Source of the DNA: Amoebophrya sp. A120 | Taxonomy: Eukaryota; Protista; Dinoflagellata | Assembly (NCBI GenBank): GCA_905178155.1 | Contig: CAJINV010000014.1 | Location: forward strand, 502,051-566,050 | Direction: 5' to 3' | DNA length: 64,000 bases | Part shown: piece after piece, positions 1,538 through 61,004 of the stretch | Numbering within the stretch: the first letter of the stretch is position 1 | Layout of the letters: each line of letters opens with the position of its first letter | Position numbers and translations under genes: made by a program | Notes under the pieces: model-generated | What the model was told of the DNA's origin: nothing | The model's database searches: none | What the model saw: only the letters and a program-made list of their open reading frames with translations

Positions 1538-1859
1538 TATCAAAAGGAAAAATCCCCCCTCCCCATATCAAAAGGAAGTCTCTGATGCTGGATTTGCGTA
1601 CACAGATCAGCTTTGTATTGCAGAGAGGCATTTCGGGCAGATCTCCAGGCTAGTTAGGGGCGTATGTGTCTAGTTGTTCAGCATGGCAAGCGGGTCACTT
1701 TTAGGGCCAACAGCATGGCAAATCGCTTCCATAGTGGGGCGGAAGCTTCTGCCCTTGTCTTCTTGCAATACAAATGTGATTTGCGACCTCAAATCAGCAA
1801 CGCAAATTTTCGGAAGCATACCTTTTCGATATGGGGAGGGGGGATTTTTACTCAGGATA
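1538..1859. mobile_element. Introner family A (TIR core AAAAATCCCCCCTCCCCATAT)
   Basis: TATC...GATA ends, TIR, TSD CTACT on both sides; removal restores frame. Confidence 0.9.
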
Positions 1860-1901
1860 CTACTCGCTTTTGCCCAGCTTCGATGAATCCATCACGCATT
1901 C

Positions 1902-2172
1902 TATGCTGTGTAAAAACGTCCCCACCCCATAGTCAAGATGGGAAATCTGCAACACAAATCTCCAAGCTTTGGGAGTTCTGCATGACAAGTTTCCATCTGC
2001 AGTGTAGTGCTGGTTAACAAGGAAAGCCGCATGCGAAAGCCACTTTCTCATCCTGTTTAGAGCATTACAAATACCAAAAACCGGCTGAAAATGCCTCTTA
2101 TGGAGTTGCGCATTACAAATGTTTCTGTCATTGCGCATTTGCATTAGGGGAACTACGTTTTTACAAATGATA
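1902..2172. mobile_element. Introner family B (TIR TATNCTGNGTAAAAACGT)
   Basis: TATG...GATA, TSD CATTC; homologous to 33054, 48337 and 56294. Confidence 0.88.
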
Positions 2173-11700: not shown

Positions 11701-13973
11701 ATCATACTGCGCATCGAGACCACCAGGGCAACCACCTCCAAATGTGCATTCATAGTCCAGAGCCTCTTTCAGCAACCTGCACTCCTCATCAGCTCGATGC
11801 CGTGCTCGACCCATAATTCTGCTTGTGGTCCCAGAATCCGCACAAGCCGAACAACCCCGGCGAACGTACTCGTCGATTTTGTCTCGGCCCAACACACGAT
11901 ACCGCGTCACAAACGCAGCCTCATTCCTAAAAATGGGCGAGCGTCTTCGTTTCGGTCGTGGTGGAGGGTCGTGCAGGTTTTTCAGGGTAGTTTGCGGTCG
12001 AGCGCCGGGAGCTGCAGGAGGAGTGGTGGACTGCGTTGAAAAAACTTCTGGTCCTCGCTGTCGGCCTTGTTCTTTACCAACAACAAGAAGGTCTTCTTGA
12101 TGCAAGTGAAGATGTTGTGCCTCGTTGTAGTTGTACAAAAATTCGCGCGCCTCGACCAGCATTGCGTTCAGCTCTGCAGCGAATGCATTGCAAACACCCC
12201 TGGATGTCTGGAAGCATGATGCAAGATTTGTCATGCTAAACCGAAGTGCGACACACTTTGCCTCCCCCTGTGTAAACGGCCGCAGATGGCTGTCACGCAG
12301 GGAAGGTGGGTCAGGCGGACATCGAAATGCCATGCAAGATTTGTCATGCAGGTTTTCAAACATGGCTCATGAAGTCTGGAATGCAGGACCTAGCGCGACA
12401 GATATGATCTCTATCGCTATCCTGCCTATGCTGCATCAGAAACTCTCTCCCAACTTGCTGGTCGAAAGAAGAAGTGGACAGCTTTTGGTAATCACGCAAC
12501 ACATCATACTTTTGCATGATTCAGATTTGGCGTGTCAAGATGCAGAGGTGGAGTTCCAGAGGGCTCAGACATATTTGCGGTTGATACCGCGTTTTTCTTC
12601 ACAACATTCCAGACTAGGCGTCTGAAATCAACACCCTCATCCGGGTCTTGCGCTGCGACTTCGCTCTCCACATGATTCTGTAGTTGTTGAAATTGTACAC
12701 GCATAGCCTCCGAAAATGTCCTCGGGATTCCGAAATTGAGGTACTCCGAACGGTAAATCCGGGACCGAGTTGCCAGTTTCTGAATCAGGAGGGACGATGG
12801 ACCAGCGCCGCGGGGGGCTCTCTTATTCGGAGTAGGAGCTTCTGCCTCACCTCCTTGTGGCGTCGGAAGAATTCCAGTACCTTCATCCTGACGCGCAGCT
12901 TCTGCTTCCTCCATTTTTCCGTTTAGTCCAGTTCCTTCGTCACAACCAAAACAACTTCCTGGCGCAGCACCCCCTCCGAAAAAAAGCTCTCCGAGCCACG
13001 GCTCCACGTCGTACTCGATCCACTTGAGAACGGTATCGTAGGCGCGATGCAGCTGCAGTGGGGAATTATAAAACGAGACATCCTGCTCCTCGTGCTCCAT
13101 CATATTACGACCAGGTCGGTCAGTCACAGTCTGCTCGCCACCTCTGCTGAATAAAGGAATAGTACCCGCAGAATCATAATTTGGCAGAGTAGGAGCTCCT
13201 GAGCGATCATTGCGTTGAGAGTTCTTGTAATTGTATCCTCCAAACACGTTGCTTTTCAGACTGAGCGAGTTCCGCTCCCAGAGTGCATGCTCCCGCAGAA
13301 ACGCGACGGATGCCACTTTCGCTTGCTCCAAACATATCCTCTCCAGGGCCTCCAAAATTGGCCGCTTCGTCTTGCTGCGCGGCGGGGGCGCTTCCTCCGG
13401 ACCCGGAGGTGTAGTTATAGAAGTGGAGTCGACGTCGTGTTCGTTGACCGGGCGTTCTTGTTGCGTAGGGGAAAAACTACCAGAATAAACATCATCAGGC
13501 GCAACACCCGAGAACAACAAAGGGCACGCCGCTCGTGGTTCGACTTTGCCTGCAGAGGTTGTACTTGTAGCTCCGCCTGCTCTCCTCAATTTCACCACCC
13601 CCCCTTCGTCACCTCCGATGGCGCGTAGAAATTCTTTATACTTGCCCAGAAGCAGAGCCTCACCCGATTTGTAGTGCGTGCGGCCGGTAGCAGCGGCTGC
13701 TCGTCGAGAACCTGGCTCGGCAGAAGCCGATGCTACGCTATGGCTGCGGCATAAGAAAGAACTCGCGTGGCTGACCTGTTCTGCTTTCTGTGCCAGGAAG
13801 ATTTCTGAGTTGCACAAATAGTCCTGGCTCCATGGGGACGGAAGAGCGCCGACCACGGCTAGTAAAAGCGGATGGAGTTGTATAACATGCGAGAGAAAAA
13901 TGAGTACGCGCCGCTGACGAAAAACGACTTCCACCCGGGCTGTTGAATTAGTAGGGGGCCACGTCCTCTTCAT
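8701..13973 (-). CDS. Large hypothetical low-complexity protein (~1,650 aa)
   Basis: ORFs 12504-13973 and 8701-12363; GT donor at 12509; junction resolvable in two ways; no domain recognised. Confidence 0.6.
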
Positions 13974-14755: not shown

Positions 14756-17039
14756 TTAAGCTCCCACTTTTCTTTTTTTCGCCGGTTTGTTCTTGTTATC
14801 CCCAGCTGTTGTACCCTCTTCGTCCACGTTCAGCGGACACTTCACCTTCGGTTTCCCGAGAACTTTGCAGCAGTTATAGCCCCACTGCTTCGTGGCAACG
14901 TCGTAGTAACTGCCGTAGACCGACTTGTGCCCGTACCGAAACACGTCTTCCTTGTACAGTGTGGAAGTCGTGTGCTTCTCTTTCTCTTTGTCTTTATTCA
15001 TCTGTGCGTTCTTATCCTCGATGGACTTGTTGTACAGCGTGGACCTGGTCTCGTCGTGCTCCGGAGGTTTCGGCACCTCCACTGGATTTTTAGCTTCATC
15101 TTGCAGAAGTAGTTCAGAAGGAGGTTCTAGTACTTGTTGCGCGCCGCTTGTTTCATCTCGTGCCAGTACCGAGGACGTCCCCGGCCGCTCGGTGAGCAGG
15201 AGGGATGTTGCGGAGGAAGACGCCGCCGCCGTCGGTGCAGCAGCACCGGAGGATGTAGTCCCAGCAGGAGCTGCAGACGGCAAGTCGTGCGCCAGATCTG
15301 CCTTGTTTTCACGACCTTGCTCACCTTGTATTTTTAAAAGCGCGGCACTACTAGAAGTAGTAGCGGACTGAAGTTTGTGTTGGTCATCGTGTTCGTTTAT
15401 CATCGTCTCGGGCCGCGGGGGCACGTTCATATCTTCCAAAATTTCGCTTGGTTGTTTGTTTTGTTGGAGCAAGGAGCTTGAGCTGCTGCTCGAGGAGGCG
15501 GCTTGTTGATGTTGTGGCGCCAGTATTTGCGGAGCTGCACCCAATCTCGAGGATGAAGAGGAGGAGGCACCTCCAGATCCAGCCCCGCCCAGCAAAGACC
15601 CTAACTCCCTTTTACCTTCCTCGGCCGCAGCAAATGATCGTGCTGCCTCGTCGTCTCCTGGCTCACCGAGCAACAACCCGGGCTCGACATCTTCTATCGC
15701 ACGAAAAAACGGCGTCACTGTAACTACGATCAAGTAAGGCTTGCATAGCATTTTCACATCACAAGTTCAAGTTCTTCTACATGACAAAGAAAATTAGGCC
15801 CTCCATGGTGCACCTGGCCTACTAACACTACATTTGTAGAGAACAACTACTCGGTTGCACATCCGTATAAGCATAACTCTCGTCTGCTGGGTCCTCTGCG
15901 AGGACGTCACCAAAGATTATACAATGAAACACATTTTTCTACTTGCGATACCGTCCTGGTCACCCGGATGAATGTTAATTTCTTCTTCGTTTACTTCTAG
16001 CGGTCTCTTCCCGCTACTGCCTGCCGCTCCACCGCTTGGGCCTAGTCCACCCTGCTTCAGCCGTTCCTGTTCTTCCCGCATTTTCTTCATCCTCTTCTGC
16101 GTCTCTAGGACCGACTGCTTTTCCTCGGGGCGCATGCTGTTCACGTTCTTCCGGGCAGTGATGTCCGCGAACAGGTCCTTAAAGCCGCCCGTCTTATGAA
16201 AGCCGCGGGTTGGAAATGCTCAAAGTGGAAAGGATTTGTGATGCATGAAAATGCGACACAAAAAAGACTGCACTGCAGAGAACGCGATGGAGGCCGACCC
16301 CGACTATTGTCCTGCTAGGGGTGAAGAATTGGGGTGCTGCTTAGCACGACAGAAGGGCACCCCCTTGCCTTAACCTGCATGACAGACATGCTTTAAGTGC
16401 CCGGGAAATTTGTGATGCGCCAACTACAAATGCCGCTTCAACTGGAGTCGATTTTTTGCATTACAAATTATTTCCACTTTGAGGATTTCCAACGACCTGA
16501 GACTTGCATACGTCTTGTTCCGCTTTTCCTCGGCCGTCATCTTCGTTTTCGCCGCCGCCTGCTGGCCCAAAAGGAGGTTGGACTTCCGGATCTCTTCCAG
16601 CTTCCGCTCCTCCTTCAGCCGCATCTCGCGCTCCTCCGCCTGCCGCTCCAACTCCAGCTGCCGTTCTATGGGGTTCTCAAATGTTACATTCTCAACTGTT
16701 GCATGAATTTGTAATGCAAGACTGGTAAAAGTGCAAGGAGGAAGATTGCGCCTTTTGCATTACAAGTTTGGCGCAGATTCAGTCGCGGCTTAGCCCTTCG
16801 CAAATTTCTCATGCGGAGCAGCTTGATCGTGGGGAGGATGATGGTGCTTTTGCATGACAAATTCATGCAACAATTGAGAATGATGTAACGTTTGAGAACC
16901 CCATACGTTCCTGGTGCATCCACATCCGCTCTTGGTTCTGGTGCGCCGACGGGTGGAAAAACTTCTGCGCGATAAACCCGCCCGCCTTCGACCCCAGGCC
17001 GGACCGAAACGCTCCCTTATCGTGGAACTTTTTGGACAT
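14756..17039 (-). CDS. Splicing-factor-like protein: Cir_N/CWC25-like N-terminus plus Slu7-like C-terminal motif (~486 aa)
   Basis: Exons 17039-16906, 16661-16511, 16189-15952, 15693-14756 in frame; QKFFHPSAHQNQERMW and YKEDVFRYGHKSVYGSYYD...WGYNCC motifs. Confidence 0.7.
15695..15950. mobile_element. Aged introner now framed by GT...AG
   Basis: Sense G-TATCGCA...TGCGATA-G; flanks GACGG/GAAGA (3/5). Confidence 0.65.
16195..16510. mobile_element. Introner family D
   Basis: TATG...CATA, TIR GTTGGAAATNCTCAAAGTGGAAA, TSD CGTCT; frame restored (NKT/GGF). Confidence 0.9.
16667..16905. mobile_element. Introner family C (TIR TATGG..CTCAAA.GTTACATTCTCAACTGTT)
   Basis: ~50-bp TIR, TSD CGTTC; frame restored (QER/QLE). 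Confidence 0.92.
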
Positions 17040-42246: not shown

Positions 42247-45178
42247 CTACACAGAATTTTTACTTCCCGTTCTACTGTTATTTTTACTCCCATTTATATT
42301 GTCCTTTTCCTCTTGTCCTTTCCCAACAATTTGCAAGAATTGGCTCGTGCTTTTCTCATCGCCTAATTTTAAAGCGGGTTTGTCCCGCGGGTACATTAAC
42401 AAATATGCAAAGCTTAGTAGGCACCAGCATAGCAACATAATCACAAACACGTCGTTTTCGAAAAACGCGCGGTAGAACTTCAAGTACCGAATCTGTGCAT
42501 TGAAAACCACGTCTGCCGTTGTCGCGCGCGCGTAGTCCCGGAACGCCAGCTGCGCAAACTGGACGATGGCGCAAGACGTGAAATTCACCAGAATCGCGTT
42601 GAACAGCAGGCTGTTGAGTGGCGTGTGGCCCTTCTTCATGGGGTGGATGGAAAACAGACAGAACGCTCGCATCCCCACCTTCAGACAGCCGGTGACGGTC
42701 GCGAACACCAGGTGCATGTTGAGAATGGCGAAAAACACCGCGGCTAGCACGAAGAGTCCGCTGGACTCGAAGGCCTGCAAGAACTCGTTCAGCATGAGGG
42801 AGACCGGCTCCTCGTTCTCCTCGCCCGGCTGGTCGATGAGGAGGTAGAAGAAGATGTGCAGCACCCAGAAAAAGGAGATGATCGCGAAAATGACCCCGAA
42901 AAAGACCTTGAGCCCGCTGGTGACCGGGTTTTCGCCCCGCTGCTTCATGCAGATCTCCATGTGGTCGTACTCCTTTTCGAGCAAAAAGCACGATATGGGA
43001 CTCTTAAACGTTACATTCTCAACTGTTCCATTAATTTGTCACGCAAAAGCACCTTAAGCCGGCAGATGATCAAGCTGCTTCGCACGACAAATTTCGGAAG
43101 GGCTAAACCTGCGGCAAACTTGTAATGCAAAGGGCGCAATCTTCCGCCTTTCACTTTTGCCAGTCTTTGTCTTGCATTACAAATTCATGTAACAGTTGAG
43201 AATGTAACATTTGAGAACTCCATACACGACTGCTTGAACTTGTTGAACTCGGTTTTCAGCTCCCGTTTTCGCTTGTTCACGTTGGAAAAGTACCCCCCGG
43301 TGGCGTCCTTCAGTTCCGTTTCCCGGTCCTGCAGTTCCTGTGCCTTCGCGAGAAGCGACTCCGCGGTTTGCGCGTACAAGATCTTCCGGCTCGCGTACTG
43401 ACTCGCGGTGATGGGTTTCGGCCGGTCTTGGTATTCGATCAGCAGGTCCATGGGCAGCGCCGTCAAGCCCACGCCGCCAAATACGACGAACAACCACCAG
43501 CCGAGGAAGCAGAAGACCGCCATCAGGTAGATGTCGAATCTGACATTGATCTCCAAGAATTTCTCCGCGGAGATTGCGCACACGTGGCCCGACCGAATTT
43601 GCTCGCTCGCACTGATCCAGTTGCCGCACGGGTAGTCCTGCACGGGGAGCTTGGCGACGGCCAGGAAGGCGAAGCTAATCAAGAGAAACATGAAGACGAT
43701 GAAGAAAAAGAACGGCTTATCCTGTGAAAAAGTTCAAACGATATCGCACTCGTAGTTGTGATTTGTTTCAATGCATAATTATTTCCCAGGTAACTCAGCA
43801 TTGCATTACCTTCGTTCTCCTTTGGAAAAAAAAATTCTTTCAATGCAAATCCACTTTCTGTTTCTACTACGTAGGGCGACATTGCTTTATTTGCGGTGCA
43901 TACAGCATGTTCACGAGCAATTTCCTTCCCGGGCTGGAGTTGCGAAATTGGGCGAGTCGGCTGGTCGTGTTCGCATTGCTGGTCGCCGCAGCTCCTCCTC
44001 CTGCGCTACTGCTACTGCTGTTGCCGAAAACGATCTTCCAGTCGCCGTTGATCTCGAGCTATCAAAAAGAAAAATCCCCCCTCCCCATATCGAAAACGAA
44101 ATTTGTGATGCAGTATTTGAGTACACAAATCGCATTTGTCTTGCTGGAGAGGACTGCAGACCCATACCAAGCCTGAATGGAGAGGCTTTGACTTAGGCGC
44201 TTAGCATGAAAAGCGTCCGCGATGTTGGCTCAACAGCATGACAAACCGGCTCCATAATGGGACGGAAGCTGTTGCCCTTGTCTTCTTGCAACACGCACGT
44301 GATTTGTGACCTCAAATCAGCAACACAAATTTTCGAAAGCCTACCTCTTCAATATGGGGAGGGGGGATTTTTCCTTGCGATACGAGCCAGAAGATGCCCA
44401 TGGGAAGCACGAGCAGGATTTATTACAGTGAAAAGTGCCCCCCACCCCCAAAGTTGCAAAAATTTGTGATGCGAAGTTTCCAAATGAAACCTTTTTGTCA
44501 TGCATGAAAGGAATAGGAATCTTTCTGATGCAGATTCTAGTGTTGTTTCGCATCGCTTGCATGACAAGCACCGCTCTTGCTGGGATCTTTTGCAATACAA
44601 ATTTTTGCTCTTCACGATCGGAAATCTGTGATGCTGATACATGCAAGACGGCGATTGTTTCATTTTGAAAGGTTTGCAATACAAATGCTCCCAAATTCGG
44701 GGGTGGGGGCATTTTTCATTGTAATAGGATTAGTAGGATCACAGAAATGAACGCGATCAGCCAAAACGCCTCCATGTTCAAGCCGCCATTATTCCGCGCG
44801 TTCCGCACGTCAATGGGCAGGAGAAAAATCACGATATACGCAATGGTGAAGCTGGCGATGACCACGAAGCGCAGCCCAATGTGGTCCTTGGAAGCTTCGT
44901 CCGAGTCTCTGTATTCCGTGCAAAAGTATCTCGCTTCATCTAGTATAACGGAGTGCTTTTATGCATGACATTGACATCAAATCAGTTTACGTCTAGTAAG
45001 TTTGCAAGGCTGAATTTTCATGACCAGTTCCATTTGTTTCCTTTTGAAAAGAGTACTGTACGAAATAGTACGATACTTTTGCAATGCATACTTCGTAGTA
45101 GAAGACCATTTTCGCGTTGATCACGAAAAAGGAGAAAATCCCCGCGATCGCGAAAAAAAGAAGGAAAAGGTCGATCAT
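42247..45178 (-). CDS. LMBR1/LIMR-family multi-pass membrane protein (~560 aa)
   Basis: LLPIDVRN, LGWWLFVVFGGVGLTALPMDLLIEYQDRPKPI, HPMKKGHTPLNSLLFN; exons 45178-45091, 44906-44727, 44415-44383, 44054-43903, 43712-43225, 42988-42247; all 5 introns are introners. Confidence 0.88.
42994..43224. mobile_element. Introner family C
   Basis: TSD CACGA. Confidence 0.92.
43718..43902. mobile_element. Diverged introner family E
   Basis: TATCCTGTG...TGCATA; TSD CGGCT/CAGCA (3/5); frame restored. Confidence 0.78.
44060..44382. mobile_element. Introner family A
   Basis: TSD CGAGC. Confidence 0.92.
44421..44726. mobile_element. Introner family I (TIR TATTACARTGAAAARTGCCCCC)
   Basis: TSD GGATT. Confidence 0.92.
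44912..45090. mobile_element. Diverged introner family E
   Basis: TSD CTCTG/CTTCG (3/5); joins YYE/DSDE. Confidence 0.8.
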
Positions 45179-47057: not shown

Positions 47058-50000
47058 TCACTCCGTCCTTAGCCTCTTCGCGACCTGCTGGTCGGGTTCT
47101 ACTGCATTGCGGTCAAGCATCAGATCCTCGTCCTCATCAGGGATAGGAATGTCGTTCGGATCCTTCTTGTCGTCATTTTTGTCCACAGCAGCTGCACCAG
47201 CAGGTGCGAGAGGAGACCGCTCATCAACCTTCATATTCTTGCCACTTGTTTCATTCGCATTCCTTCCAGGTGAAGCAACAGCAGTTGCACTGCTACCACT
47301 TCCGAGGGCCGTCGCGGGGGCGGCACCGACAGCAGCTGCACTGCCAGAAGCGGTACCAGGCCCGGAAGTTGATGTAGTACCTCCACCGTTTGGTGAGGAA
47401 AGTAGAAGAGAGCCTTTTTTAGGCGCGTTGTCCTTGTCCCCCGTCGCGGTTGGTCCTGTCGGCGGTGAAGGGAAGCTTGGCTTTTTTTCAACAACAACAG
47501 CATCGTCTTCCTTATCCGAGTCGAGGTCGCTGTCGTACTCGTCAAAAATGTTCTTCTCCGGTTTTTTTGTCGCGGTGTCAATCTCTTGATAGTCTTTCAA
47601 CACCGGACTACTCGAAGACGATTTACTTCCTCGCGAAGTCGTGCTAGTCGCGCCACCCGCTCCAGTGGAGGTTTTCACGACCGTAATGCTGATACCATTG
47701 TCGACGAAAGTAGGAGAGCCTGTCTTATTTGTGCCTTGTACCTGGCCACCAGCAGCACCTGTGTTACCACCCACAAATTCACCTCGCGGGATCAAAGAAG
47801 ACAGTGCCGGGCTAGCAGTGGTCGCAGCATTGCTGGAAGAATGTTTCTGCAGTGCAACTACCGGTGGTCCGGTGGGGCCGATGTTGACATAATTACTAGC
47901 AGTTGCTGTAGTCGTCGTTCTACTTCGTGGGGAAGCCAGAGCTGTGGATATCAAAGACGATGGCGCGGGGGCCCCCGCGACCAGTGGTCCGCCACCTCCC
48001 ATAGCACTGCTCTTCAGCACGTTGGCACCGGCGATATTTGCGACCATAGCCGCAATTGAGGAAGCGCCGGCGGAAGGAGAAGACACTGAGCTTGGTCCTC
48101 CAGCACCTGGAGCAAGCGAAGGGCCAACAATCGGGTCGTTGCCCGCAGTATTTGCTGATCCGTTATTTTCGAGGAGTGCGGCAGCAACACGACCTCCTGC
48201 AGCCCCAGCACCGGTTGTTGGCGCAGCACCACCCGCCCCGAAGAGAGCAGTAGAACTGGAGTTAGTCGACGGAGAGAAAAAACTGCCGCTTTGTTGACTC
48301 TGTTCTTTCTGAGCCAATTCTTGCTTGCGCTTTTCCTATCCTGAGTAAAAACGTACCCACACCAGAGTCAGCATGGGGATTTTGCAACACAAACCTAGCC
48401 GTTTTGTGAGTCACGGATGACAAGTTGCACTCTGTAGTGTAGTGCAGGTTACCAAGTGCAGCGGCGTCACAAATCCAGCTGCTCATCCTGTTCACAGCAT
48501 CACAAATTCCAAAACACGACTGGAAATGGCTCTCATGGGGATGCGCATTACAAGTCTTCCTGTCTTTGCAAATCTGCATTACAACTCTGGTGTGGGTACG
48601 TTTTTACTCAGGATATTTCCACCGAGTGCTTCATTTCCTCCAACCACCGCGGACTTGTAGATATCGTAGAGAAAAATCCCCCCTCCCCATATTGAAAGCG
48701 TATCCGTCTGAAAATTTGTGATGCGCATTTGTGACCTCAAATCCTGTCTGTCTTGCAAGAAGGCAAGTTCAGAGAGCGCCCTGCATTTTGCAGGCGGTTT
48801 GTGATGCTGTTGGGCTTAGAGCATTCACGTTTGTCATGCTAGGCGCCTATGTCAAAACCTCTCGCCTGAGGCTTGACATATGCCTGCAGTCCTCTACTGC
48901 AAGACAAATCTGATCTGTGTGCGGAAATCCAGCATCAGAGACTTCGGCCCGATATGGGGAGGGGGGATTTTTCCTTTCAATAGTAGAGCTCGAGCTGCCA
49001 GAGGAAGAACTTGCTCCTGCTCCACTACTTGGAACAAGTAGGTTCAAGTTCGAAACAGCCGGCACCGTTATCACCGGTGGTGCCGCTCCGCCCACATCGG
49101 CTGCGTTCGCGTCAGAAGATTGTTTCTGTAGCTGATGCTGTTCCCTTTCCCCGGCCTCTATGGCTGCGTCAACCTTCTGCAGCAAAAGGGACTTGTGGTC
49201 CCGCCCACTAGAAGAGGTGGATGCAGAGCTATTGACAACTGTCGGAGCAGCAATGGTCACGCCCGGCTGCTGCAGCGAAGCGCTGGTGCTGGAGGAAGGA
49301 AAAACTCCTCCGCTGCTACTCGATGAGGTGGATGATGTGTACCCAAACTTAGCTTTGAGGAAATCCACAGGCTGATTCAGATTCTCGCTCGCTGAAGACG
49401 AGCTGCCCGTTGTCCCGGCCGAATTGGTTCTGTGGTGCGACAGCTCCCGCTTTTTCGCACTCTGGTCCTCTATGGCGTCCTCAAATGTTACATTCTCAAC
49501 TGTTACATGATTTGCCATGCAAAATCAGCATCAACGTCCACACGGTGAAGCTACTTCGCATGACAAATTTTGGAAAGGCTAAACAGCATCGGAATCTGTG
49601 CCGATTTTGTAATGCAAGAGTTGCAAGATTCGGTCTTTCCCTATTGCCATTCTTGCATCACAAATTCATGTAACAGTTGAGAATGTAACGATTGAGAATC
49701 CCATATCCTCCTCTTCAGCATTGTAGTAGCCTTGCTCGGACAAATATCCAGGAAAAAACATCCATCCCCATCCAATTTGTCATGCATACATGCATAAAAT
49801 CTACTATTTGTCATGCAAAAAATGGATGGGGATGGGTGTTTTTTCCTGGATAACAAAACGTGCGCAGTGCGCTTTCGGCTCTGCAGGTTGGAGGGAGCAG
49901 TGTCGGGCTGTTTTGTGTATAATGTTTTTTTTTTCACCGTTCAAATCTAGCATTGGTCGTAGAACTTCCACTTCGTGAACAGTAACTAGAAATACATAGA

Positions 50001-53000
50001 TCAAAATTTGCATGCTGGGAAATCGAAGCCACAAAGAGTATCATGTGCATGTGAGCTTGAGCCTTTAGAGGTACCTTATTCTGCACAACTCCTCGTCCGG
50101 ACGTAGCGCCGCCACTGTCCGTAGTTCCCTCGATGAGCTTGTGCAGTTCCTCGTCCGTCTTGTCAAAGGTGGAAGAAATGTTGATTTTCATCGAGTTTCC
50201 AGCCAGATTCCTCCCGCCACTCGATGCTGCGGCCCCGAAGGCGTTCCCGCGCCGGAAGGGCATAGAAGTAGAACTACTAGTACCTCCAGAAGTTCTTGTA
50301 GACGTTTCGCGGTTCATCTGCAGGAAGGCACTGGCCGGCTTTTCCTCGTAATCGGGGAGAAAGTCGTCGTCCAAAATACTTGCGGTTTTGCTCTTGACCA
50401 ACCCCGAAGCCAGGAACAGATCCTGTATCGAATTGGAAGAAGAGGAGGACGATGCCGTCGAGGTCGTCGTAGGAGTACTATTTTCTGCTCGATTCGGCGG
50501 GCCGAAGGGGCCGAAAACAGGTCCGGTCGGAGGTGGTGCGCCAGCAGCTGCTGCCCGGCTACCCGAAGTATAATTAGTCGCCCCTCGTCCGCGACTGCTG
50601 ATCATGTTGTCCTCCTCATCATCGTGATTTTGCATGTTGACCACCGGGGGTAGTTTCAGAGCCTCTCGCGACTTGCGTTTCTTCTGCTTCTGGGACTTGT
50701 TCACGGACCGATTGATGTTGGACGAAGAGGAGGAACTAGAGGTGCCAGCACTTGCAGTGTTGTTACTGGACAGAAATGCACCCGCAGTTCCCGGCTGCGG
50801 GTGGGGGCCCAACAAAGGTCCCGCGGCGCCGCGGCCGGCATGCGGCGGGCTGTCGTCGCTGGATGACAAGGAGTCGGAACTGGAGGAGTTATGGCGTTCT
50901 CAACTGTTACATCCTCAACTGTTACATGGATTTGTGATGCAAAAAGTGCAACAGTGAAATAGGAGACCTTGCGCTTCTTGCATGACAGATTTGGCAAAGA
51001 TTCTCAGCCTGTTGGGCTCGTCGGGAATTTGTCATGCGAAGCAGCTTGATTGCGTCGATTCTGATTGCAATTTTGCATGACAAATCATGTAACAGTTGAG
51101 AATGTAACATTTGAGAACGCCATAGGAGTCGCTGTCACTGTCTGAATTCTCGAACCAACTGTCGTCGACGACATAGTTGGAATCTTGCCTGTGAGAATTC
51201 GTGTTGGTGGAGGAATTTATTTAAGTATTTGCGTGGCATACGCATATCTTTTAGTTTTACCCCACGTGAAAAATGCGCTATATGACAGAGAGCGGAGGTA
51301 CTGTTTCTAGCAGCTTGTTCGAATTGGAATTCTTATTCTTCTTGTAACTTCTGAACATGCGGACTAGTTCTCCTCGCGGTATAACTTAGTGCGATTGATG
51401 TTTTTTGTTTTTCAGCAATGTCGATGATGCGCGAACGTTGATACAACCTGGTATAATCAACTATCAATGATGCCGAGCAATGCAACCCGTGCGGACATTG
51501 ATCTAAGTAAACTCATAAGTACCTTCTCCTCGGTCCCGCCCCGCCGCTCCCGCTGGAGCTGCTTCGTCCCGGCGGCCCTATCGGCGACAAATCGTCGTCC
51601 TCCGAAGCGCGCCGCCTTCTGTCCAATTGCTCCAGATCCACCTCCAGTTCGTGGTCTAACGCCTGTTCGTCCGCCCGCGCGAGCGCGTTGGGATCCAGCA
51701 AGAGACCACCCCCGCCCTTGTTCCCGAACGAGCCCCGCAGCGTCGCGTTTCTCAAGTCCTCCTCCAAAAACTGCTTCCGCTGCCGCTCCGATTCCAATTC
51801 CTGCACCTTCCGCTCTTCTATCCAGGAGAAAACACCCATCCCCATCCAATTTGTCATGCAAAACATGCATAGAGTCCACTATTTGTCATGCAAAAAATGG
51901 ATGGGGATGGGTGTTTTTTTCTGGATATCTTCCGCCTTGATGATCGCTTTGTAACTGACGAAAACTTTCGACAAGACCTGCACCTCGCGGAAGTCCTTTT
52001 TTCTCCCCGGAATGTTGGGGCCCCCGCCCCCGTCTTTCGGGGGAGGGGGCTGGGGCCCGATACCGGAGAAGATGTTGCCATTCTGGTTTTGGTATCAAAT
52101 GCAAAAGTGTCTGGGTCTGGAAGGATGCAAGGTTTGTCGTGCACATTTTGCATGACTTCTGATGTCTGTGATGCATTCCCTAGCATCACAGATTTTGTGA
52201 GGGCTTCCTGATGCCTGTACCGCATGAGAAATGCCCTCTCGGCGTGGCAAAAACTGGACCTCTTTTGCTTTTCATGCAATACAGACTTTTGTAGAATCCA
52301 GACGCAGCATCACAAGTTGCATGCTTCCAGACCCAGACATTTTTACATTTGATATTTGGTTATTCGTCACTGCAAACCGCTCCGCGTCCGAGTTCCGGTT
52401 GCACCAGGGCTCGATGAAAACCTCGTTCTCGAAGTTATGGCGTTCTCAGCTGTTACACTCTCGTCTGTTACATGGATTTGTCATGCAAGAACGCCAAAAG
52501 TGAAAGGGGGAAGATTGCGCCTTTTGCATGACAGACTTGGCACAGATTCTCATCCTGTTTGTCCCTTCGGGAATTTGTCATGCGAGGGAGCTTGATTCAT
52601 CATCATGTAGTGGACACCCGCTCCCAGCGCCACAGGTCAAGGATCCCCTCCCCGGGGGGTGGGCGAGGATTCATATCGACTCTGATTGGAATTTTGCATG
52701 ACAAATCATGTAGCAGTTGAGAATGTAACGTTTGAGAGCCCCATAGAAGTGCTCAAACAGAAACTTGATCAGTTGCCGCATCAACTGGAACTGCTGCGAC
52801 CCCTGCGCGATGGCCTGCAACAGGGCCAAAATCGAGGAGAGCAGCGAGTTGCCCGCGTACCGCTTGGCGGCCTGTTGGCTCGCGGATTGTTGGTAAGCTG
52901 TAGAACCAGGGGGTGGAGAGGACGGGGAATTCATCATGTCCAGACCCGTTCTTGGGGAAGACAAGGACGCTGACGCAGCACCACGATTATTAAAACCTCT

Positions 53001-56000
53001 GGCACCTCCACCTGCGCCTGAGTAGCTACTCAGTTGCTGCACCACGGGCTTGGCCATCTCTTCCAGCTGGTCCTTCAGAATCTTCATCACGGGCTTCCAC
53101 AAGATGTCCGGCGACTTCATCAGCAGCCGGCCCAGCTGTTCCTGGTTCCGCATGATCACGGTGCGGATGAATTTGATGATCGCGATGTGCAGAAACTTGC
53201 ACGGAATGGCGAACAGTTTGCTCACTTTCTGGCAACACTCCAGGTTGGCAATGAAAATGATCACCTGCACTTGCTCCTGCTTCTTATTCGGATTCGGGTT
53301 GGTCGTCACGGATTTTTGCAGCCCGGCGCACAGGATATCCAAAATGCACTGCCGGGCAAAGTTACGGGCGTCCTCTGTCGTTGTATATATATGGAGAAGT
53401 TGTGTGGTTTGTGATGTTGAAGAAATTATATTAAGGGTCATCTTCCACAACTATCTAGGCTCGAGTCACCGAAGTAGAAGATGACAGGGAGAAGCTGCCT
53501 TTCATCATTTTTATACCTCAAAAGTTGGGTCTTGGCCAAAAAAATTACAAGATCTTTTCTCTGTACTACTAGCTAAGTACACTTACCATCCATCCTCTCG
53601 TCGAACAGTGTTTTTTCCTTCAGGGCCGTGACTAGCGGCACCATGACCCCCTGGCTCTTGTCCCACATAATCTCGCAAAAACCCTCCCGCTCCGCGCCCC
53701 CGACCTTCTGCACGTTGGCGAAATTATGGAACCCGAACCCGCCGGACCCGGACTCCGCGGAGGCCAGCATGGCGGACAGCTGCGGGTTGTGCTGCGCTTC
53801 GAAGTCCAGACACCACCGGAGGAGCTCGCACACAAGGGACTGCGTGGGCTGGTCGTTTTCGACCAACAAAAGTTCCGCGATCTTTTTCAGCCACGAGGGA
53901 TTGTCGATGGCGTGCTTGCGGATCAACGAGGGGTTGTGGTACGCGTACATCTATCCTGTGCAAAAGTATCGTACTCGTATTGCTAATGCAGTCATGCATT
54001 ACAATTTTTTTCCTAAACAAAGGTAAATCCGCATTACAAATATTTTTTTCTCTTGCTGAGGAAATTTGTAATGCATTTATACGAGAAGTACGATACTTTT
54101 GCAGTGCATAACATCTGCAGAATGTCCAGCGCGACCGTCCGCGTGGACGCGTGCGGGGATCGGCGGATCGGGAAGGGGCCCGCGAGGTTCTCGAACTTTT
54201 TCGCCGCGGTCCGGGGGGTGAGGGGGATCAGCGTCCCATCCAACGCCGTCGTGGTCAGTTTATCTGACAGCTTCAAAGCCTCCTCCAACCCACTGGTACT
54301 AAGTTGTTTAGCAGGAGAGGAATCTTGTTTCCTGTCGCCGCTTTGTTGCGTCGTGGAAGAGGGTCCTCTTGGAGTCATTGGGAGATCATTTTTGTCCCCG
54401 GCGCCGTCGATATTATTGGTCGTGGCAGCTGCACTATGACAGTGCACAACCCCCCCTCCCCCTGATTTGTCATGCAAAATACGCAAGCCACCCTTTGCCT
54501 CTTGGCACTGTTTGCTTGACAAGTTCTGGTGGTCCAAATAGCACTACACTCCAGTGCAAATTTGTATTTGGCATGCAGAACCGGCGTTCTTGCTCATGCT
54601 TGTATTGCCGCCCATGCTATACAAATGAGGGGGAGGGGGAGTTGTGCATTGTCATATGCACCTGGCCCGTTCACGGTTTCCAGGTCGTCAATCAATTTCA
54701 ACTGCTGCTGAAAGTCGTCGCTGTGGTAGAGTTATCAACTGCAAATATGTTTGGGTCTGGAAGATAATTACAGGACAACTTCTCATGCAGCTATTCCGTG
54801 CCCCATGCTGTCTCTGATGTTGTGTGTTCTAGCATCACAGATTTTCTGAGTCCTTTGTGCTGGTGCCTATCTTGCATCAGAAAGTGCCCTCTCGACGTAG
54901 CAAAAACGGAACTCCTCTTGCTGCTCAGGCAATACAGATCGTTTTAGCGCCGTCCAGAAGCAGCATCACAAGTTGCAACTCTTTCAGACCCAGACGTGGT
55001 TGCAACGCATAAGGGGTTTTCCACTTCGAAACCAATCACGTCGCCGTCGTGCGGGACTTCGGGCTCCAGGAGAAAGGGGAGCAGGAGGTTGAACAGTTGC
55101 TTTCGCTCGAAAGCGATGTACCTGAAGGATGGTTTGGATCGAAGATAAAATCCAGGTAGATGAACTACAAACATCGTTTGACTTTATGTATTTTGAGGCT
55201 TTCACAACTTCACACGACACATTGAGGATAGGATCTTTTTCGACCAATGCATGATTAGATCATAAATGTAAAATAAACTTTGGATTTGACACTTTGCAGA
55301 ATTTTCGACGTGATAAAAATAAAATTTTAAAATTTCACGGATTTTGAATTTTCAACTGCAAAACTCTGCACCAAAAAAACGACGAGGCAACACCATTCCT
55401 GGATTTGTCTCATTCATTCGAATAAAGTGACAGCTTGGCTCTTCTTTTTCCTCAGGTTCGCCCACTCTTTAAAAATAAAAAATTGAAATTTCGCGGATTT
55501 ATCCTTTCAATAAAAATAAAACTTTGAATTTTCGTCGATCAAATTGAAGTTCTTGTAATCCGAGTGAACTCAGAGTACTAGCAGCTTGAATATCATAGTA
55601 TTGATTGTACTAAAAAGAACTGCTTGCTTTGTTACTTGTTCGTCTCTGTACGCAGGGAATTGAAATTTTGAAATCCTCCCGAAATGGTAAAAAACAAGCA
55701 TCCATCAAAAGCATCCATATTTATACAGTCTCTCCTTTTCCGTTGGACTGAGGGCGTGATTCTGGTACCGCACCGTTCTTAGCGCTTCCGCTACGAAGTC
55801 CAAGGTGAGCCAATCCTTGGCCGCCAGCTGCTGGCTATGAACTGCAAAAGTATCGCACTCGTATAAATGCATTACAAATTCTCTCAGCATGAGAAATCAA
55901 ATTTGTAATGCGGATTTACCTTGAGAAGAAAATTTGTAATGCATGATTGCAATACGAGTACGATACTTTTGCACAGGATACTGGCAAATGGTTTCCAACA

Positions 56001-59000
56001 CTTCGTTATTTTCCTCCATGTCGATCCCATTGTTCCGCATCATCTTCTTCCGCTGCATCGCGTAGGAACTCTGCTGCAGATATGCAATGCAAATTTCCTG
56101 CACATGTACCAAATGCATGACAAATGTCACTACCTTGCAGGGTCCGACTTGTCATGCTGGACTAGGATTGAAGGCAAGTTTTGTCATGCAGAGACTGCAT
56201 TTGTACTTCGTGTACGGGAATAAATTTACTGTGGATAGCAGACTGGGCGAGTTGGTGCAAATGGCCTCGATCAGCTGGTTCAAATTCTGCCCCTATCATA
56301 TGCAAAAACGTCCCCACCCCATAGCTGTCATGCAATTCCGCATGCCAAAAAAGTTTCTCATGCGGAGCTCTATGAGAAGTATTTTTCTTTCGTGTTTTGG
56401 AATTTGTGATGCTAGAATCAGCATACTATGCTAGATCTGTCATGCTTCTGAACTAGGGAAACAGCATTACACTCCGAGGACAAACTTGTCATGCCAAACA
56501 ACCAAAGCTAGTCGATTTGTCTAGCAGATTTCCAAACTTAGCTCTGGTGTGGGTACGTTTTTACTCAGGATAGCCCCACGATGATGTTCATGACCGCGGA
56601 ATTTTGGTCGTCCAGCAGCTATCCTGTGCAAAAGTACTCGCATTGCAATCATGCATTACAAATCCCTTTCTTAAGCTAAATCTGCATTACAAATTTTTTT
56701 TCTCATGCTGCAGAAATTTGTATTGCATTTATACGAATACGATACTTTTGCAATGCATAGCAGCCGGGCCATGGCCACGTCGCGGACGTACTGCACCCGC
56801 AGGTTCAGGTCGATCAGTTTGAAGATTTCGTCGTTCTTGAAGGTGATCACCTTTTTGAACTTCACGTCGCGCTTCAGAATCTGGCGGTGGGGGACGACCA
56901 TCGCCAGTCCGGGGTCGAACTCCATGATCCCAATCATGGCCTCGTAGTTCGTGTGGTTCAGCTGTGCAATACAAATTTCCACCCGTACATGTACAACATG
57001 CAGCACAAATTTCGCCAACTTAGAGCAGACAACTTGTCATGCTGAACAGGATTTAAGGGAAGCTTTGTCATGCAGAAACGGCTTGTGTACGTCGTGTACG
57101 GGAAATTTGCTGTGGATATCAGCATCTTCCGCACAAGGTGCTGGTCGGCGAGCGAAAGCTATCCTGTGCAAAAGTATCGCACTCGTAGTAATTGCAGTCA
57201 TGCATTACAAATGTCCTTTTTTAGGTGGATCAGCATTACAGATTCCTTTTATTTCCTTCTCGAAAAATTTGTAATGCAAATCATACTAGTGCGATACTTT
57301 TGCAATGCATAAAAGCATGTTGCGGACGATCTCGAACAAATCCTTCTTGGCGTTGATCAATCCCACCTTCTCGTGAAAAATAGCTTCCGGGTTGATATAC
57401 GGCCGCGGTAGTTCCTCGGGTTCCTTAGGCCCAAAAACTAGTTGTACATTCTCGGAATTGCTATTGCAAGGCTCCTGCGAAGTAGTAGTAGGTCCTGCAG
57501 CTGTTGCACTACTTCCAGGTGGCTGCTGCTGCTCTCCTCCACCGGGAAGATGAACCTGGTTTATTTTGCTACCTTCATGATCTTGCGGGGGCCCGGCGGC
57601 GTTTTTAATATTGTCCGAGCCTCCTGGTTGATGTACTATAGCCGAGTCCAGCCCTCCTGAAGTTCCAGGTTCGGGCTCTTCTTGCGGCTGCTGATGCTGC
57701 TGGGTGCTGATGTTCGTCTGTTTCCCGTCGATCGCCGTGATAACAATGTCGTCGAGTGAGGCACCGGCACTGGCACCAGCAGCTGCTCCTACACCTGTAG
57801 TGGTCGTACCACTAGAAGTTACAACGCCAGATATTAATGGTGGAGGAGCAACATTTTGCGATGGGATGCTGGCGCCACCATCTTCGGCGGCAGAGGTGCC
57901 AGAGCTTGTTCCTGCTGCTGCAGGGATGGTGCCATCCACCGTCGAATCCGTGGCACTACTAGGTCCCGTATTATAATTCCCTTGTTGCGGCGCGGTGGTT
58001 GCGGAGCTGCTGGATGCGGAGGGCTCTTCGGCATGGTTTGATGTTGTGCCGTTGGACATACTACTCGCATCCCGCATCGGCTCATCCTCGTCTTCTGCGT
58101 CAACAGCAATGTTGTCCACGTTATTATTTTTGTTGAGATCATCTCCGTCATGCAGATCATCAGTTGCATCCTTGATTTCGACATCCTCGATCGCCGCGTC
58201 CTTGATTTCCACATCCTCAGACTGATCTTCGGGAAGATGACCTTCTGGTGCACCAGCGGGAACCGCTGCACCTGCTGAAGTTGCGCCTGCAGTGGGCACG
58301 TGCTCCGGGTCCGGTCCGCTACTCAGATTGGTAATAGCACCTGATGCCGTTGTCGTTGTCTTGGTCTCTATCGCAGCTGCATTTTTATTTCCGTCCTGAA
58401 CTTCTCCAGACGATGACGAGGCACCTCCTGCAGGAGCACCAGGCTGCTCATTGTCCGCTGCTGCCAGTGGTACAACCACCGCGCCAGGCACTGCAGCAGC
58501 ATCTCCTGAGGCGCCGCTCGGTGAGCTGGCACTTTGCTCCTTTGAGAGTTGTTGTGCCGCCTTCATGTGTGCCTCCTTCTTCCTGATGCGCTGCTCCCAC
58601 TTGCACAGCTCGCTAAACATGTCCGAAACGTTGGACAGCCTGTGTTGAAGATCGATGACAATGTCGTGTGTGCGGATTTCAATTTCTGTAAATTGTGTCG
58701 TTTCTGCACAGAAGAGGAAGAGAAATAAATGTCTGCTTTTCATCTCGAAAGTTAATGCTGGCGCGTCCATCTCCTTCATGAGGCGGCCTGACTATACAGT
58801 TACAACACTTCACCGCAACAATTCGCGGAGGAGCTGCGTTCTTCGAGTTCTTGTAGTACAAGCAAAATAAAATCCCTAGAAATTATCGTCAAACAGAAAA
58901 ATTGGAAAAATTCACGCAAATCTATTTCTATTACTGCATACCAACTATCCTCCTGCGACTCCTGGGCGCAGATCCGGCGGTTGTGCGGCGTGATTCCGCA

Positions 59001-61004
59001 TCAAATGCAAAAGTGTCTGGGTCTGGAAGATTGCGAAACTTGTCATGCTTGTCTGGCATGACCAAAAAGTTTGTGATGCGTGTCCAAGAAGAGACCGCTT
59101 TTCCTGTCATGCAAAAACGCAGTTTGTCATGCGAAAAACGCAACACAAAGAAGCGCAGATATTTCTCATGCTTGGCCGTGCATTGCAGAGCATTCACTAT
59201 TCCCAACGCAGCATTACAAGTTTCCAGACCCAGACATTTTTGCATTTGATATTCCGCCGATGGAGAGCACGTGGTCGGTGACCCGCAGCCCCTGGGTATG
59301 CAAGAAAAAAACTGTGTAACTGTAAATCTGTGATGCAGAACATGCAACAGAGTTACACCTGTCATGCCAGACAGCCACGACGTCCTCTTTCCATGTGTGT
59401 TTTCCCTTACAAACCACGCATGACAGGTTCTCTGTATCATGTAGAGCAAATCTGTGATGCTGTCAGCCACAGAAAGCTACACTAACACAGTTTTTTTCTT
59501 GGATACTGGGTGGGCGGCGGCGACTGTCCGTTGTGCGCCTGGGCGTACTGCACCTGCTGTCGCGCCATGAAATTTGTGGCAAAATTCGAGAGGACCATGG
59601 AGGTTTGGTGCAAGTTTTGGAGGTCCAAAAAATCCGGGAGCACCTTCCGCCGCCGGGCATTCAGCGCCCGGGTCTTCATCTCGATGGCGCGCCGGAGCAT
59701 CAACTCGGTGTCACCTGAGCGGAGAATTTGATAGAAGAGCTGGGGCGGTATCGGTGAGTTTGCTCTTGCTCACGTACTAGAATTGTTCACTAGGTTCTTG
59801 ACTAAAAATATACGCGCATGTTGCTGGCAAGAAAAACGTAGATCGTTGGTCGTGTTCTTCATTCATTCGCACAAAGATGTTCTTGTAGTGGTCTTTTTCT
59901 TCTAGATACCTATCGGGTTTCCAATCGTCTCCAAGTCGGTTCGTTTTCGCGACAGTACGGCATAAAGCGCTCGTGCGTCCTCCGGTCGCTCTAGAGAAAG
60001 GGCGAAATCTTTCCCAATGATGTCTTCCCAGACGATAATGGTTTCTTGAACGGCTGTTGTGTGTAAATTGGTACGTTCAGTTCATCTGCCATGCACATGA
60101 TGACTAAACGTACTTTTATTTACGAATTACTATGCGCGTCGTACAAGTACTTACAGAAGGATGTTGACAGAAGTTGGTGAGACCCACGGAGAGTTGTTGT
60201 CGTTGTATCGTGCATGCAAATTTTCACGCACCTCTTCTACCGACTCCGACGTCCAGACGTACTACTACATGTTCTTGCTTCAAGCATCAAACACGCGCAA
60301 ACAGAAAATTTCGCACCTCCAGATTCCGCCGCTTCGGCTTCGCTCATGCCGTCCGTCTGCATGTGGTAGCTTTCGGCGCCGAGCACGTGAAAGGTTTTGA
60401 TTTCTTTCCCTGTCTCCGTCTGAATCCGCAGCTTCCCGCGGGACAGGATCGGCACAAAGTCCATCCTCAGGTGCTGCGGTCCGGACCTTTTCTTTTTCTT
60501 CTTCTTTTTCTCCTTGTTTTGTCCCTCGTCTCCACCACCTTCTGCGGGGGAGACGCCGTTCGCCTGCGGAGACGAGGATCCGCCTTCAGGATGTTGGACG
60601 TTGCCATTGTCCTCATTTTTGTCGTCATTTCCGTTATTTTCGTCGTCCTCCACCTCCTCACTCTCGCTGTCACTGTCGCTTTTACTGGAAATGACCTTCT
60701 TGATCTCTTCCTGCTTCCGCAAATCGCAAAACACGTACCCGGTACCCAAATCGGCCCACTCCTGCTCTCCGTCGTCGTTCGTGCGGAACTCGTACAGCTT
60801 GCAGCGAAATTCGTAGTTCGTGTTTTGCTGATTGAGGTTCGGAGGTCCCAAGCCTTGCTGCGTTTGTGATGCTGCTCCTGTGGCACCGTTGTTATTGTTG
60901 TTGTAATGCTGCTGCATGAACTGACTGTAGCCCTGCCCACCGCCGCCGCCACTGCCGTAGCTGCCCTGGTGCCCGCCAGTCGTGGTTCCGGTGCCGCCAC
61001 GCAT
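47058..61004 (-). CDS. PPP4R3: Serine/threonine phosphatase 4 regulatory subunit 3 (SMEK/Psy2-like), ~2,600 aa, ~27 exons
   Basis: EVH1-like N-terminus (RCKLYE...EWADLGTGYV, ETIIVWED..KDFALS); SMK-1 region (IGIMEFDP...HRQIL...FKKVITF...RVQYVRD); KFLHIAIIKFIR; NSLLSSILALL; 19 introners plus ~7 GT-AG introns; junction near 58790-58945 uncertain. Confidence 0.85.
48337..48615. mobile_element. Introner family B
   Basis: TSD TTTCC; near-perfect 32-bp TIR. Confidence 0.92.
48662..48982. mobile_element. Introner family A (reverse orientation)
   Basis: TSD GTAGA. Confidence 0.9.
49471..49705. mobile_element. Introner family C
   Basis: TSD TCCTC. Confidence 0.92.
49745..49852. mobile_element. Introner family F
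   Basis: TSD ACAAA; TIR TATCCAGGAAAAAACA. Confidence 0.92.
50890..51124. mobile_element. Introner family C
   Basis: TSD GGAGT. Confidence 0.92.
51819..51927. mobile_element. Introner family F
   Basis: TSD TCTTC. Confidence 0.92.
52093..52354. mobile_element. Introner family G
   Basis: TSD TTTGG. Confidence 0.92.
52436..52745. mobile_element. Introner family C carrying a nested insertion
   Basis: TSD GAAGT; 75 bp longer than sister copies. Confidence 0.9.
52594..52674 (-). mobile_element. Nested 74-bp insertion, possible 3' end of a non-LTR retroelement
   Basis: 7-bp duplication GATTCAT (52594-52600, 52668-52674); GC-rich body ending in an (ATG)3 tail on the - strand. Confidence 0.55.
53952..54110. 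mobile_element. Introner family E
   Basis: TSD ACATC. Confidence 0.92.
54435..54656. mobile_element. Introner family J (TIR TATGACARTGCACAAC.CCCCCTCCCCCT)
   Basis: TSD TGCAC. Confidence 0.92.
54733..55011. mobile_element. Introner family G (diverged)
   Basis: TSD AGAGT/AGGGG (3/5); frame restored. Confidence 0.82.
55836..55980. mobile_element. Introner family E (reverse orientation)
   Basis: TSD CTGGC; TATCCTGTG end on the right. Confidence 0.92.
56081..56237. mobile_element. Introner family H
   Basis: TSD GCAGA. Confidence 0.92.
56294..56572. mobile_element. Introner family B
   Basis: TSD GCCCC. Confidence 0.9.
56620..56759. mobile_element. Introner family E
   Basis: TSD GCAGC; joins ARLL/DDQ. 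Confidence 0.92.
56963..57118. mobile_element. Introner family H
   Basis: TSD TCAGC; left end TGTG variant. Confidence 0.9.
57160..57311. mobile_element. Introner family E
   Basis: TSD AAAGC. Confidence 0.92.
58999..59251. mobile_element. Introner family G
   Basis: TSD TTCCG; left end CATC variant. Confidence 0.9.
59297..59505. mobile_element. Introner family K (TIR TATSCAAGAAAAAAACTGTGT)
   Basis: TSD CTGGG. Confidence 0.92.

Follow-up and report, generated by a model that had tools for sequence, protein, structure and literature searches.

The stretch of DNA examined here, 64,000 nt of contig CAJINV010000014.1 of the dinoflagellate Amoebophrya sp. A120 (positions 502,051 to 566,050, the whole of which we call the window), carries genes that include an EVE-domain protein, LMBR1 and PP4R3/SMEK, together with many short, repeated introner elements that begin TAT and end ATA. 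We count 41 complete elements of this kind between positions 1538 and 59505, 108 to 405 nt each and 9,677 nt summed, by combining a terminus-blind scan with relaxed and family-based searches; a first-pass annotation of the same DNA had put their number at about 43. A perfect 5-bp target-site duplication (TSD) of arbitrary sequence flanks 35 of the 41 (that annotation had given about 35), with all 35 sequences different, and duplications of 3, 4, 6 or 7 bp are found at none. There is no base preference in the target of insertion, either in the window or in the related loci described below. The terminus-blind scan itself returned TAT..ATA in 22 of 52 inverted-repeat pairs having a 5-bp direct repeat, as against 0 of 9 and 0 of 13 pairs in two Markov nulls. 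The termini are TAT/ATA in 37 elements, with one end changed to CAT in two, TGT in one and AAT in one, and all four changed ends lie at the transcript 3' side. CAT and TGT had been called before; a TAC variant called with them has no convincing example in the window and does occur in the related loci.

A common end pattern, TAT-N7-AAA, runs through all groups of elements: across 80 ends, positions 1-3 read T in 78, A in 79 and T in 80, and A stands at positions 11-14 in 60, 60, 75 and 64. BLAST comparison yields 18 groups, 8 with several members and 10 singletons, so that the proposed minimum of 11 families holds even with some singletons being decayed members of larger families. The families are repeated and have no internal transposase, the longest window element being 405 nt. 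Terminal inverted repeats (TIRs), expected at roughly 15-50 bp, are present in most elements, but 19175 and 43718 pair little past the terminal TAT. On the coding strand, 39 of 40 elements tested have no GT-AG register (the exception is 19505), and thus lack the ends of a U2-type intron, much as the first-pass annotation had maintained.

Deleting an element with one copy of its duplication yields MKVGDKAFFYHSN in the EVE gene and VAMARLL/DDQNS in the PP4R3/SMEK gene, which bears out the claim that the frame is restored inside conserved motifs. More direct evidence comes from assembled contigs, presumed to be RNA, from two samples of one study (X3-X6), in which an element plus exactly 5 nt is skipped at 11 of 11 elements between 32000 and 45400, six of them in X3-X5 and five in X6. 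The six are skipped jointly in one 11-kb contig, in three runs, and because a canonical GT-AG intron (36211..36456) is also absent from the X3-X5 contigs we take these to be spliced RNA. Gaps of 41, 89 and 592 nt between X6 pieces equal the exon lengths left after removing 8 more elements and two canonical introns, which brings RNA support to 19 of the 41 elements (11 by joints, 8 by piece lengths). The joints rebuild the 560-aa A120 protein P0001 exactly, to which a 247-aa LMBR1 exon is 100% identical (67% to the protein of strain A25), and they open a 4,294-aa frame at 26385-41133, where the longest unspliced frame has 2,269 aa. Related elements at 35010 and 37857, in opposite orientations, are both removed from one transcript. 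The TAT...ATA elements are therefore removed exactly and in both orientations, as precise, non-GT-AG introns. Raw RNA sets X9 and X10 gave 91 and 12 reads over 19.9 kb, nearly all on element ends, and are uninformative on joints. We also note 87 X9 reads at 52324-52355, from a differing strain or locus, in which a family end is joined to another flank, that is, an element retained in RNA. As for the 4,294-aa frame, it spans six element introns and one canonical intron, and no Pfam family is found in it besides one weak dynein match below the cut-off.

Perfect duplications conceal the position of the cut, and it is therefore the three unequal duplications, at 33054, 43718 and 44912, that are informative. 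At all three the upstream copy is kept, over 3-5, 4-6 and 3-5 nt respectively, and if k is the number of nucleotides of the upstream copy kept, the 11 joints are all compatible with k=4 or k=5 and with no other value. An intron thus comprises (N)UAU...AUA and the 4-5 bases that follow, which are arbitrary, with the 5' cut at the first U or one base before it. At each of the two unequal LMBR1 sites, the A25 ortholog has the residues encoded by the upstream copy, the one that is kept. A fixed AG closing the duplication was considered and rejected, AG being found in 10 of 104. Insertion phase is uneven (78, 46 and 31 of 155 frame-called elements from the related loci, p=1.4e-5), without clear base preference; with a cut at k=4, the commonest class would be phase 0. 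For annotation of the A120 genome the rule is a simple one: the intron is the element plus the downstream duplication.

Searching with the end pattern retrieved 161 loci (L001-L161) from one assembly, about 0.53 Mb of distinct sequence with 10 of 64 parts scanned, a set that is biased to the family searched for and that may come from the same or a close species and is not a second lineage. These loci contain 404 elements, of which 329 have perfect duplications, and for 34 of the 41 window elements a relative at 74-95% identity is present among them. Families stand in both orientations to the transcript (26:18, 14:11 and 15:7), and either orientation would work because both ends read UAU...AUA. 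A variant-tolerant finder returned 393 locus elements, 34 of which have a variant end, whereas a 150-kb null yielded none; two likely false elements (L009 12965 and L026 10803) were removed from the variant count. Among 171 strictly strand-called elements, changes at the 5' versus the 3' end number 0 vs 3 at position 1, 2 vs 2 at position 2 and 7 vs 0 at position 3 (Fisher p=0.008). With hand strand calls, which were made from frames and neighbours and were not blind, and with the 4 window cases added, the counts become 0 vs 14, 2 vs 8 and 10 vs 2 (p=1.2e-5). At the RNA level, then, the first U never varies, the third base and the last A can both change freely, and the A of the closing AUA is mostly kept; the tolerated changes are U at position 3 to C or G, and the last A to C, G or U. 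The polarity holds only position by position: the simpler rule that all end variants lie at the transcript 3' side, true of 4 of 4 in the window, fails in the loci, with 9 at 5' and 5 at 3' (p=0.42). In one locus, L004, what looks by eye like an ABC-transporter gene (~1500-1960) appears to flip strand across an element, through either an inversion between elements or a misjoin in the assembly.

A transposase would be expected to make the same demands on both ends, and stem pairing predicts other tolerated changes, so the polarity suggests selection by splicing. Most elements are predicted to fold a terminal stem, with mean pairing probabilities of 0.6-0.8 at positions 1-3 and 9-14. The pattern fits spliceosomal donors, in which the U is indispensable, the A is retained in most cases and the third base can vary, and in which intron base +2 is the most conserved. 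With k=4 the first U falls on intron base +2, and the distance from the kept A to the 3' cut is 7 nt (8 nt at k=5); a spacing of 7-8 nt is familiar from group II introns. The main A120 splice sites listed in Table S4 of Farhat 2021 (PMC7789003) all have T second, and those listed for A25 all start TT.

A second shared feature lies inside the elements. The motif AATTTGTVATGCA recurs in unrelated groups, with 172 sites in the 9,677 nt of elements and 28 in the remaining 54,323 nt, by a matrix trained on these same window elements, and it occurs in 403 of the 404 locus elements when terminal sites are counted. The commonest spacing of same-strand sites is 31-33 bp (15 pairs among 16 window representatives; null mean 2.8, maximum 9, p=2e-4). 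The first site clusters at distances of about 38, 48 and 59 bp from the end; since the period test gives a broad result (periods 9-12), helical phasing of the first site is no more than suggestive. Elements 43718 and 44912 have no internal site and are still removed exactly, so the motif is dispensable for splicing. By analogy with the subterminal transposase sites of other families, it likely serves mobilisation.

Overall, we lean toward the reading that the A120 introners are non-autonomous DNA transposons mobilised by one integrase-type transposase, and that the spliceosome reads their ends instead of GT-AG. A DDE transposase of the IS3EU/GingerRoot/Ginger type would cut at TAT and would bind the internal AATTTGTVATGCA sites, often as pairs 31-33 bp apart. 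At the level of RNA, UAU would replace the donor core, with N/UAU read like G/UAU; the A of the closing AUA would serve as a landmark and possibly as the branch point, and the 3' cut, which lies 7-8 nt beyond that A, would be set by distance and not by an AG. One duplication leaves with the intron, so the protein is unchanged and the elements can spread through genes. We hold more tentatively a bolder form of this proposal, in which a rewired spliceosome uses an N/UAU donor, the AUA A as branch point and a 3' cut 7-8 nt on, with no AG and perhaps no U1, while one undescribed IS3EU/GingerRoot-like transposase, with a 5-bp duplication and binding to a helically phased internal motif, makes nearly any exon insertion, whichever way it points, a scarless intron. 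The first-pass annotation had likewise proposed one transposase specificity and one sequence-tolerant removal pathway. The shared TAT-N7-AAA end and the internal motif favour the former, and the absence of a transposase from the searches described next does not; the latter is tolerant of flanks but not of element ends, where it is directional and end-specific.

Several results weigh against the reading of one transposase and a spliceosome that reads element ends. No transposase or integrase family was found in 30 open reading frames (ORFs) of the window, nor in 68 of 223 locus ORFs of at least 200 aa, a set that covers a small part of the genome. The longer elements of the loci (432-1209 nt) have captured filler or other elements inside them, and inspection by eye reveals no integrase-like frame. 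Farhat 2021 (PMC7789003) likewise detected no transposase in A120 and spoke against a general mobilisation by one. In the 11 locus families that have no relative in the window, the 31-33-bp spacing does not reach significance (5 pairs, null mean 1.9, maximum 8). The cut register is read from three introns in assembled contigs of one study. Mismatches between duplication copies affect 24 of 279 third codon positions and 9 of 496 other sites (155 frame-called elements, related loci), a skew that exceeds the one-free-copy prediction (p=0.016) and hints at a variable register; it could reflect variable cutting or conversion from other alleles. At the would-be +1, G occurs 52 times where 50 are expected, hence without excess, and at +5 it shows no orientation bias, which leaves k=4 and k=5 undecided. 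Finally, two elements in long minus-strand frames, L004 2873 and 6194, end GUA, so that the candidate branch A is not invariant.

Among the long elements, those carrying filler include L023 505-1608, L030 433-1641, L032 632-1465 and L018 1537-2349, and L019 1603-2034 and 5081-5554 are listed among the filler-carrying or nested ones. A 6-kb repeat shared by L027 and L037 has long frames of host type, and the element end pattern has no match in viral contigs.

The main rival, which we consider unlikely, dispenses with the spliceosome: an endonuclease and ligase, or a pathway of the euglenid type, would recognise the terminal stem or end motifs, cut asymmetrically and release a linear or circular RNA. 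The terminal stem that most elements can fold would suit such a pathway, as would the lack of a G preference at +1, and excerpts of the literature state that U1 was not detected in A120 (PMC7789003) and that in the nonconventional introns of euglenids the two ends pair and excision may yield circles (PMC11170887). At the same time, element 43718 is removed exactly at predicted terminal pairing probabilities of at most 0.1, and the tolerated end changes are not pair-keeping and depend on transcript direction. Another reading, an improbable one, would have the direct repeats aligned and let the cut, or a polymerase jump, fall anywhere inside them, so that both copies serve in some of the molecules. 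The codon-position-3 skew, with a ratio of 4.7 where at most 2 is expected, speaks for it, as do a legend (Fig. 3 in PMC7789003) in which splice-site position is said to vary with respect to the hairpin and the tendency of contigs to drop minor forms; it is contradicted by the upstream copy being kept in 3 of 3 unequal duplications, by downstream copies that in two of these carry amino-acid-changing differences absent from the A25 ortholog, and by the exact removal of 43718, whose copies share 3 of 5 bases. On the side of mobilisation, it is possible, though doubtful, that several transposases or a host DNA-binding protein are at work, and that ends and motif are shared through splicing or chromatin selection. 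None of these enzymes was found in the ORFs searched, the motif phasing test is broad, and the A120 rows of Gozashti 2025 (58 rows, PMC12130899) are mostly TIR DNA elements of unassigned superfamily, with one Mutator and some non-long-terminal-repeat families; what opposes it is the uniform 5-bp duplication without base preference, and a motif that splicing does not explain, dispensable as it is in 43718 and 44912.

Two further readings would remove the elements, or seem to, without splicing. Excision from DNA at some life stage, like that of the internal eliminated sequences of ciliates, with RNA only mirroring it, fits the transposon ends and the exact restoration of the target, and rare excised alleles are compatible with the X1 joints among the matches listed. 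We regard it as very improbable: X1 contigs run into elements, 44912-45090 is spanned unbroken at depth 28, and DNA excision does not predict end conservation that tracks transcript direction. Direct repeats together with a hairpin are a known recipe for reverse-transcriptase template switches, both are present here, and all removal evidence is derived from cDNA. That the joints are such artefacts is nonetheless the least credible of these proposals, since the elements carry stops and break conserved genes, only their removal gives proteins matching the A25 ortholog, six are skipped together in one contig in three runs, and unequal repeats and a stemless element are skipped just as exactly.

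If the preferred reading of spliceosomal removal and a single transposase is correct, splicing can do without both terminal dinucleotides, and the elements show how genes can be filled by a cut-and-paste transposon that leaves no scar. Register, end polarity and internal motif together lend themselves to sharp tests of the branch site, of the bases needed and of the motif bound by the transposase.

The coordinates of the elements and of three canonical introns are collected in Table 1. A few other repeats occur in the window. A sequence of about 40 nt (core CATCATCGG...TCCAC), which does not belong with the TAT...ATA elements, has five copies on the + strand, at 145, 842, 2391, 3919 and 5410, among rearranged-looking gene scraps in the first 5.5 kb; there is no Rfam match in the window, this repeat included. 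The right half of an element of the 1538 family lies at 2233-2326 without left end or duplication, and the roughly 60 nt that follow read like what we take to be a cyclin-dependent kinase (CDK) subdomain. A separate inverted-repeat hairpin with TCC...GGA ends (3042-3165) contains a 67-nt TAT...ATA pair with a 4-of-5 duplication, left out of the count of 41. An 11-nt inverted pair some 550 nt apart (4457 and 5005) and a 35-nt exact direct repeat (6406 and 7190) are possible remains of other mobile elements.

Table 1. Introner elements and canonical introns of the window. Two sequences separated by a slash are the unequal copies of a duplication; RNA support is given as spliced-contig joint or piece lengths.
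Feature	Position	Strand	TSD	Remarks
Element	1538..1859	+ (host frame tentative)	CTACT	
Element	1902..2172	+ (host frame tentative)	CATTC	
Decayed element	12182..12586	-	CAGCG/CCGCG	AAT end, transcript 3' side; removal joins 1455 + 3474 nt open frame
Element	16195..16510	-	CGTCT	3' ORF of host gene is a weak Slu7 match
Element	16667..16905	-	CGTTC	
Element	17980..18303	-	CGCAT/CGCAC	Frame uncertain
Element	18348..18596	-	TCGTC	
Element	19175..19477	-	AGTTC	Nearly no TIR past TAT
Element	19505..19660	-	TCACC	Sole one with possible GT-AG register
Element	20594..20748	-	CCGTC	
Element	22702..22813	-	AGAAA	Within EVE-domain gene
Intron element	33054..33332	-	TCTTC/TCCTC	Upstream copy kept (3-5 nt); joint 33048/33333, runs X3-X5
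Intron element	35010..35341	-	TCCGG	CAT end, transcript 3' side; orientation opposite to relative 37857; spliced-contig joint
Intron element	35550..35808	-	GTCGT	Spliced-contig joint
Intron element	35894..36053	-	CATGT	Spliced-contig joint
Canonical GT-AG intron	36211..36456	-		Removed in same X3-X5 contigs
Intron element	37857..38181	-	TTGTT	Spliced-contig joint
Intron element	38604..38839	-	ACGGG	Spliced-contig joint
Intron element	42994..43224	-	CACGA	LMBR1 gene; spliced-contig joint
Decayed intron element	43718..43902	-	CGGCT/CAGCA	Upstream copy kept (4-6 nt); lacks a predicted terminal stem and any internal motif site; spliced-contig joint
Intron element	44060..44382	-	CGAGC	Spliced-contig joint
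Intron element	44421..44726	-	GGATT	Spliced-contig joint
Intron element	44912..45090	-	CTCTG/CTTCG	Upstream copy kept (3-5 nt); spliced-contig joint; unbroken in X1 contig
Intron element	48337..48615	-	TTTCC	PP4R3 gene region; piece lengths
Intron element	48662..48982	-	GTAGA	Piece lengths
Intron element	49471..49705	-	TCCTC	Piece lengths
Intron element	49745..49852	-	ACAAA	Piece lengths
Canonical GT-AG intron	49908..50074	-		
Intron element	50890..51124	-	GGAGT	Piece lengths
Canonical GT-AG intron	51189..51522	-		
Intron element	51819..51927	-	TCTTC	Piece lengths
Intron element	52093..52354	-	TTTGG	High-copy family; piece lengths
Intron element	52436..52745	-	GAAGT	Piece lengths
Element	53952..54110	-	ACATC	
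Element	54435..54656	-	TGCAC	
Element	54733..55011	-	AGAGT/AGGGG	
Element	55836..55980	-	CTGGC	
Element	56081..56237	-	GCAGA	
Element	56294..56572	-	GCCCC	
Element	56620..56759	-	GCAGC	Interrupts ARLL/DD of PP4R3
Element	56963..57118	-	TCAGC	TGT end, transcript 3' side
Element	57160..57311	-	AAAGC	
Element	58999..59251	-	TTCCG	CAT end, transcript 3' side
Element	59297..59505	-	CTGGG	

The core of these findings is a known system, in the very strain where it was described. Inverted-repeat introner elements with non-canonical splice sites are indeed on record from Amoebophrya A120, where Farhat 2021 (PMC7789003) gives 29,850 such repeated introns with RNA support, inverted repeats made of TAT, seven variable bases and three A, direct repeats of 3-5 nt, and nearly all spliceosomal proteins together with U2, U4, U5 and U6, and in the passages at hand leaves the position of the intron border open. 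The window elements share with these introners the organism, the TAT-N7-AAA ends, the 3-5-nt repeats, the RNA-supported non-canonical removal, the repeated families without internal transposase and similar lengths, and differ from them in nothing of kind; the published passages do not mention an end polarity or a shared internal motif. Three points, the cut register, the polar ends and the shared internal motif, were not found in print: our search, which mostly left subscription journals outside, brought up no publication that treats Amoebophrya introners with regard to cut register, branch point, end polarity or internal repeats; figures S19-S25 of Farhat 2021 may bear on register and motif. 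The introners of A25, as partly described in the same source, also have inverted and direct repeats and non-canonical sites, the main ones beginning TT as does the A25 repeat, but their ends start TTA, the elements are shorter and the families are strain-specific.

On the transposon side, the entries of Gozashti 2025 that we cite (PMC12130899) include an A120 family that combines TIRs with Copia/Gypsy-like frames; another entry is family 38, listed as 'Ginger, 5-bp TSD, TA/TA Termini' and described as without Ginger termini and homology. The first-pass annotation had set the mobilising partner apart from Transib and Ginger and thought it perhaps uncharacterised; the ends agree with the first half of that proposal, but a Ginger-like, integrase-related partner has already been proposed in print for family 38, and IS3EU/GingerRoot had not been considered. 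According to excerpts of PMC10045372 and PMC6839031, IS3EU/GingerRoot elements have TA...TA termini with a 6-bp TSD as their hallmark; they resemble the introners in these termini, in having TIRs and in lacking target base specificity, and their enzyme is an integrase-related DDE transposase, but their TSD is usually 6 bp and their TIRs 100-150 bp, whereas duplications here are strictly 5 bp, with 0 of 41 at 6 bp. Ginger elements are given, in part of PMC2836005, ends of TGTNR and a 4-bp TSD; TDD-4 and TDD-5 alone share the 5-bp TSD, and the TGTNR ends of Ginger1 and Ginger2 compare with TGT at 1 of 82 window ends. No window element has a CAC end. Transib has CAC termini with a 5-bp TSD.

As introns, the elements invite comparison with two further systems, each taken from portions of the sources cited. 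The nonconventional introns of euglenids (PMC11282704, PMC11170887) are likewise non-GT-AG, with paired ends, TSD-like repeats and a proposed transposon origin, but their consensus is CAG/CTG and circles are proposed, whereas in A120 the ends are polar and removal extends to an element that lacks a predicted stem. The introns of Fritillaria borealis (PMC11282704, bioRxiv 2025.08.15.670264) derive from miniature inverted-repeat transposable elements with TIR and TSD and are reported to be removed by the spliceosome; they use mostly AG-AC/AG-AT sites and prefer a TAC target, whereas the 3' dinucleotide of the A120 introners is arbitrary.

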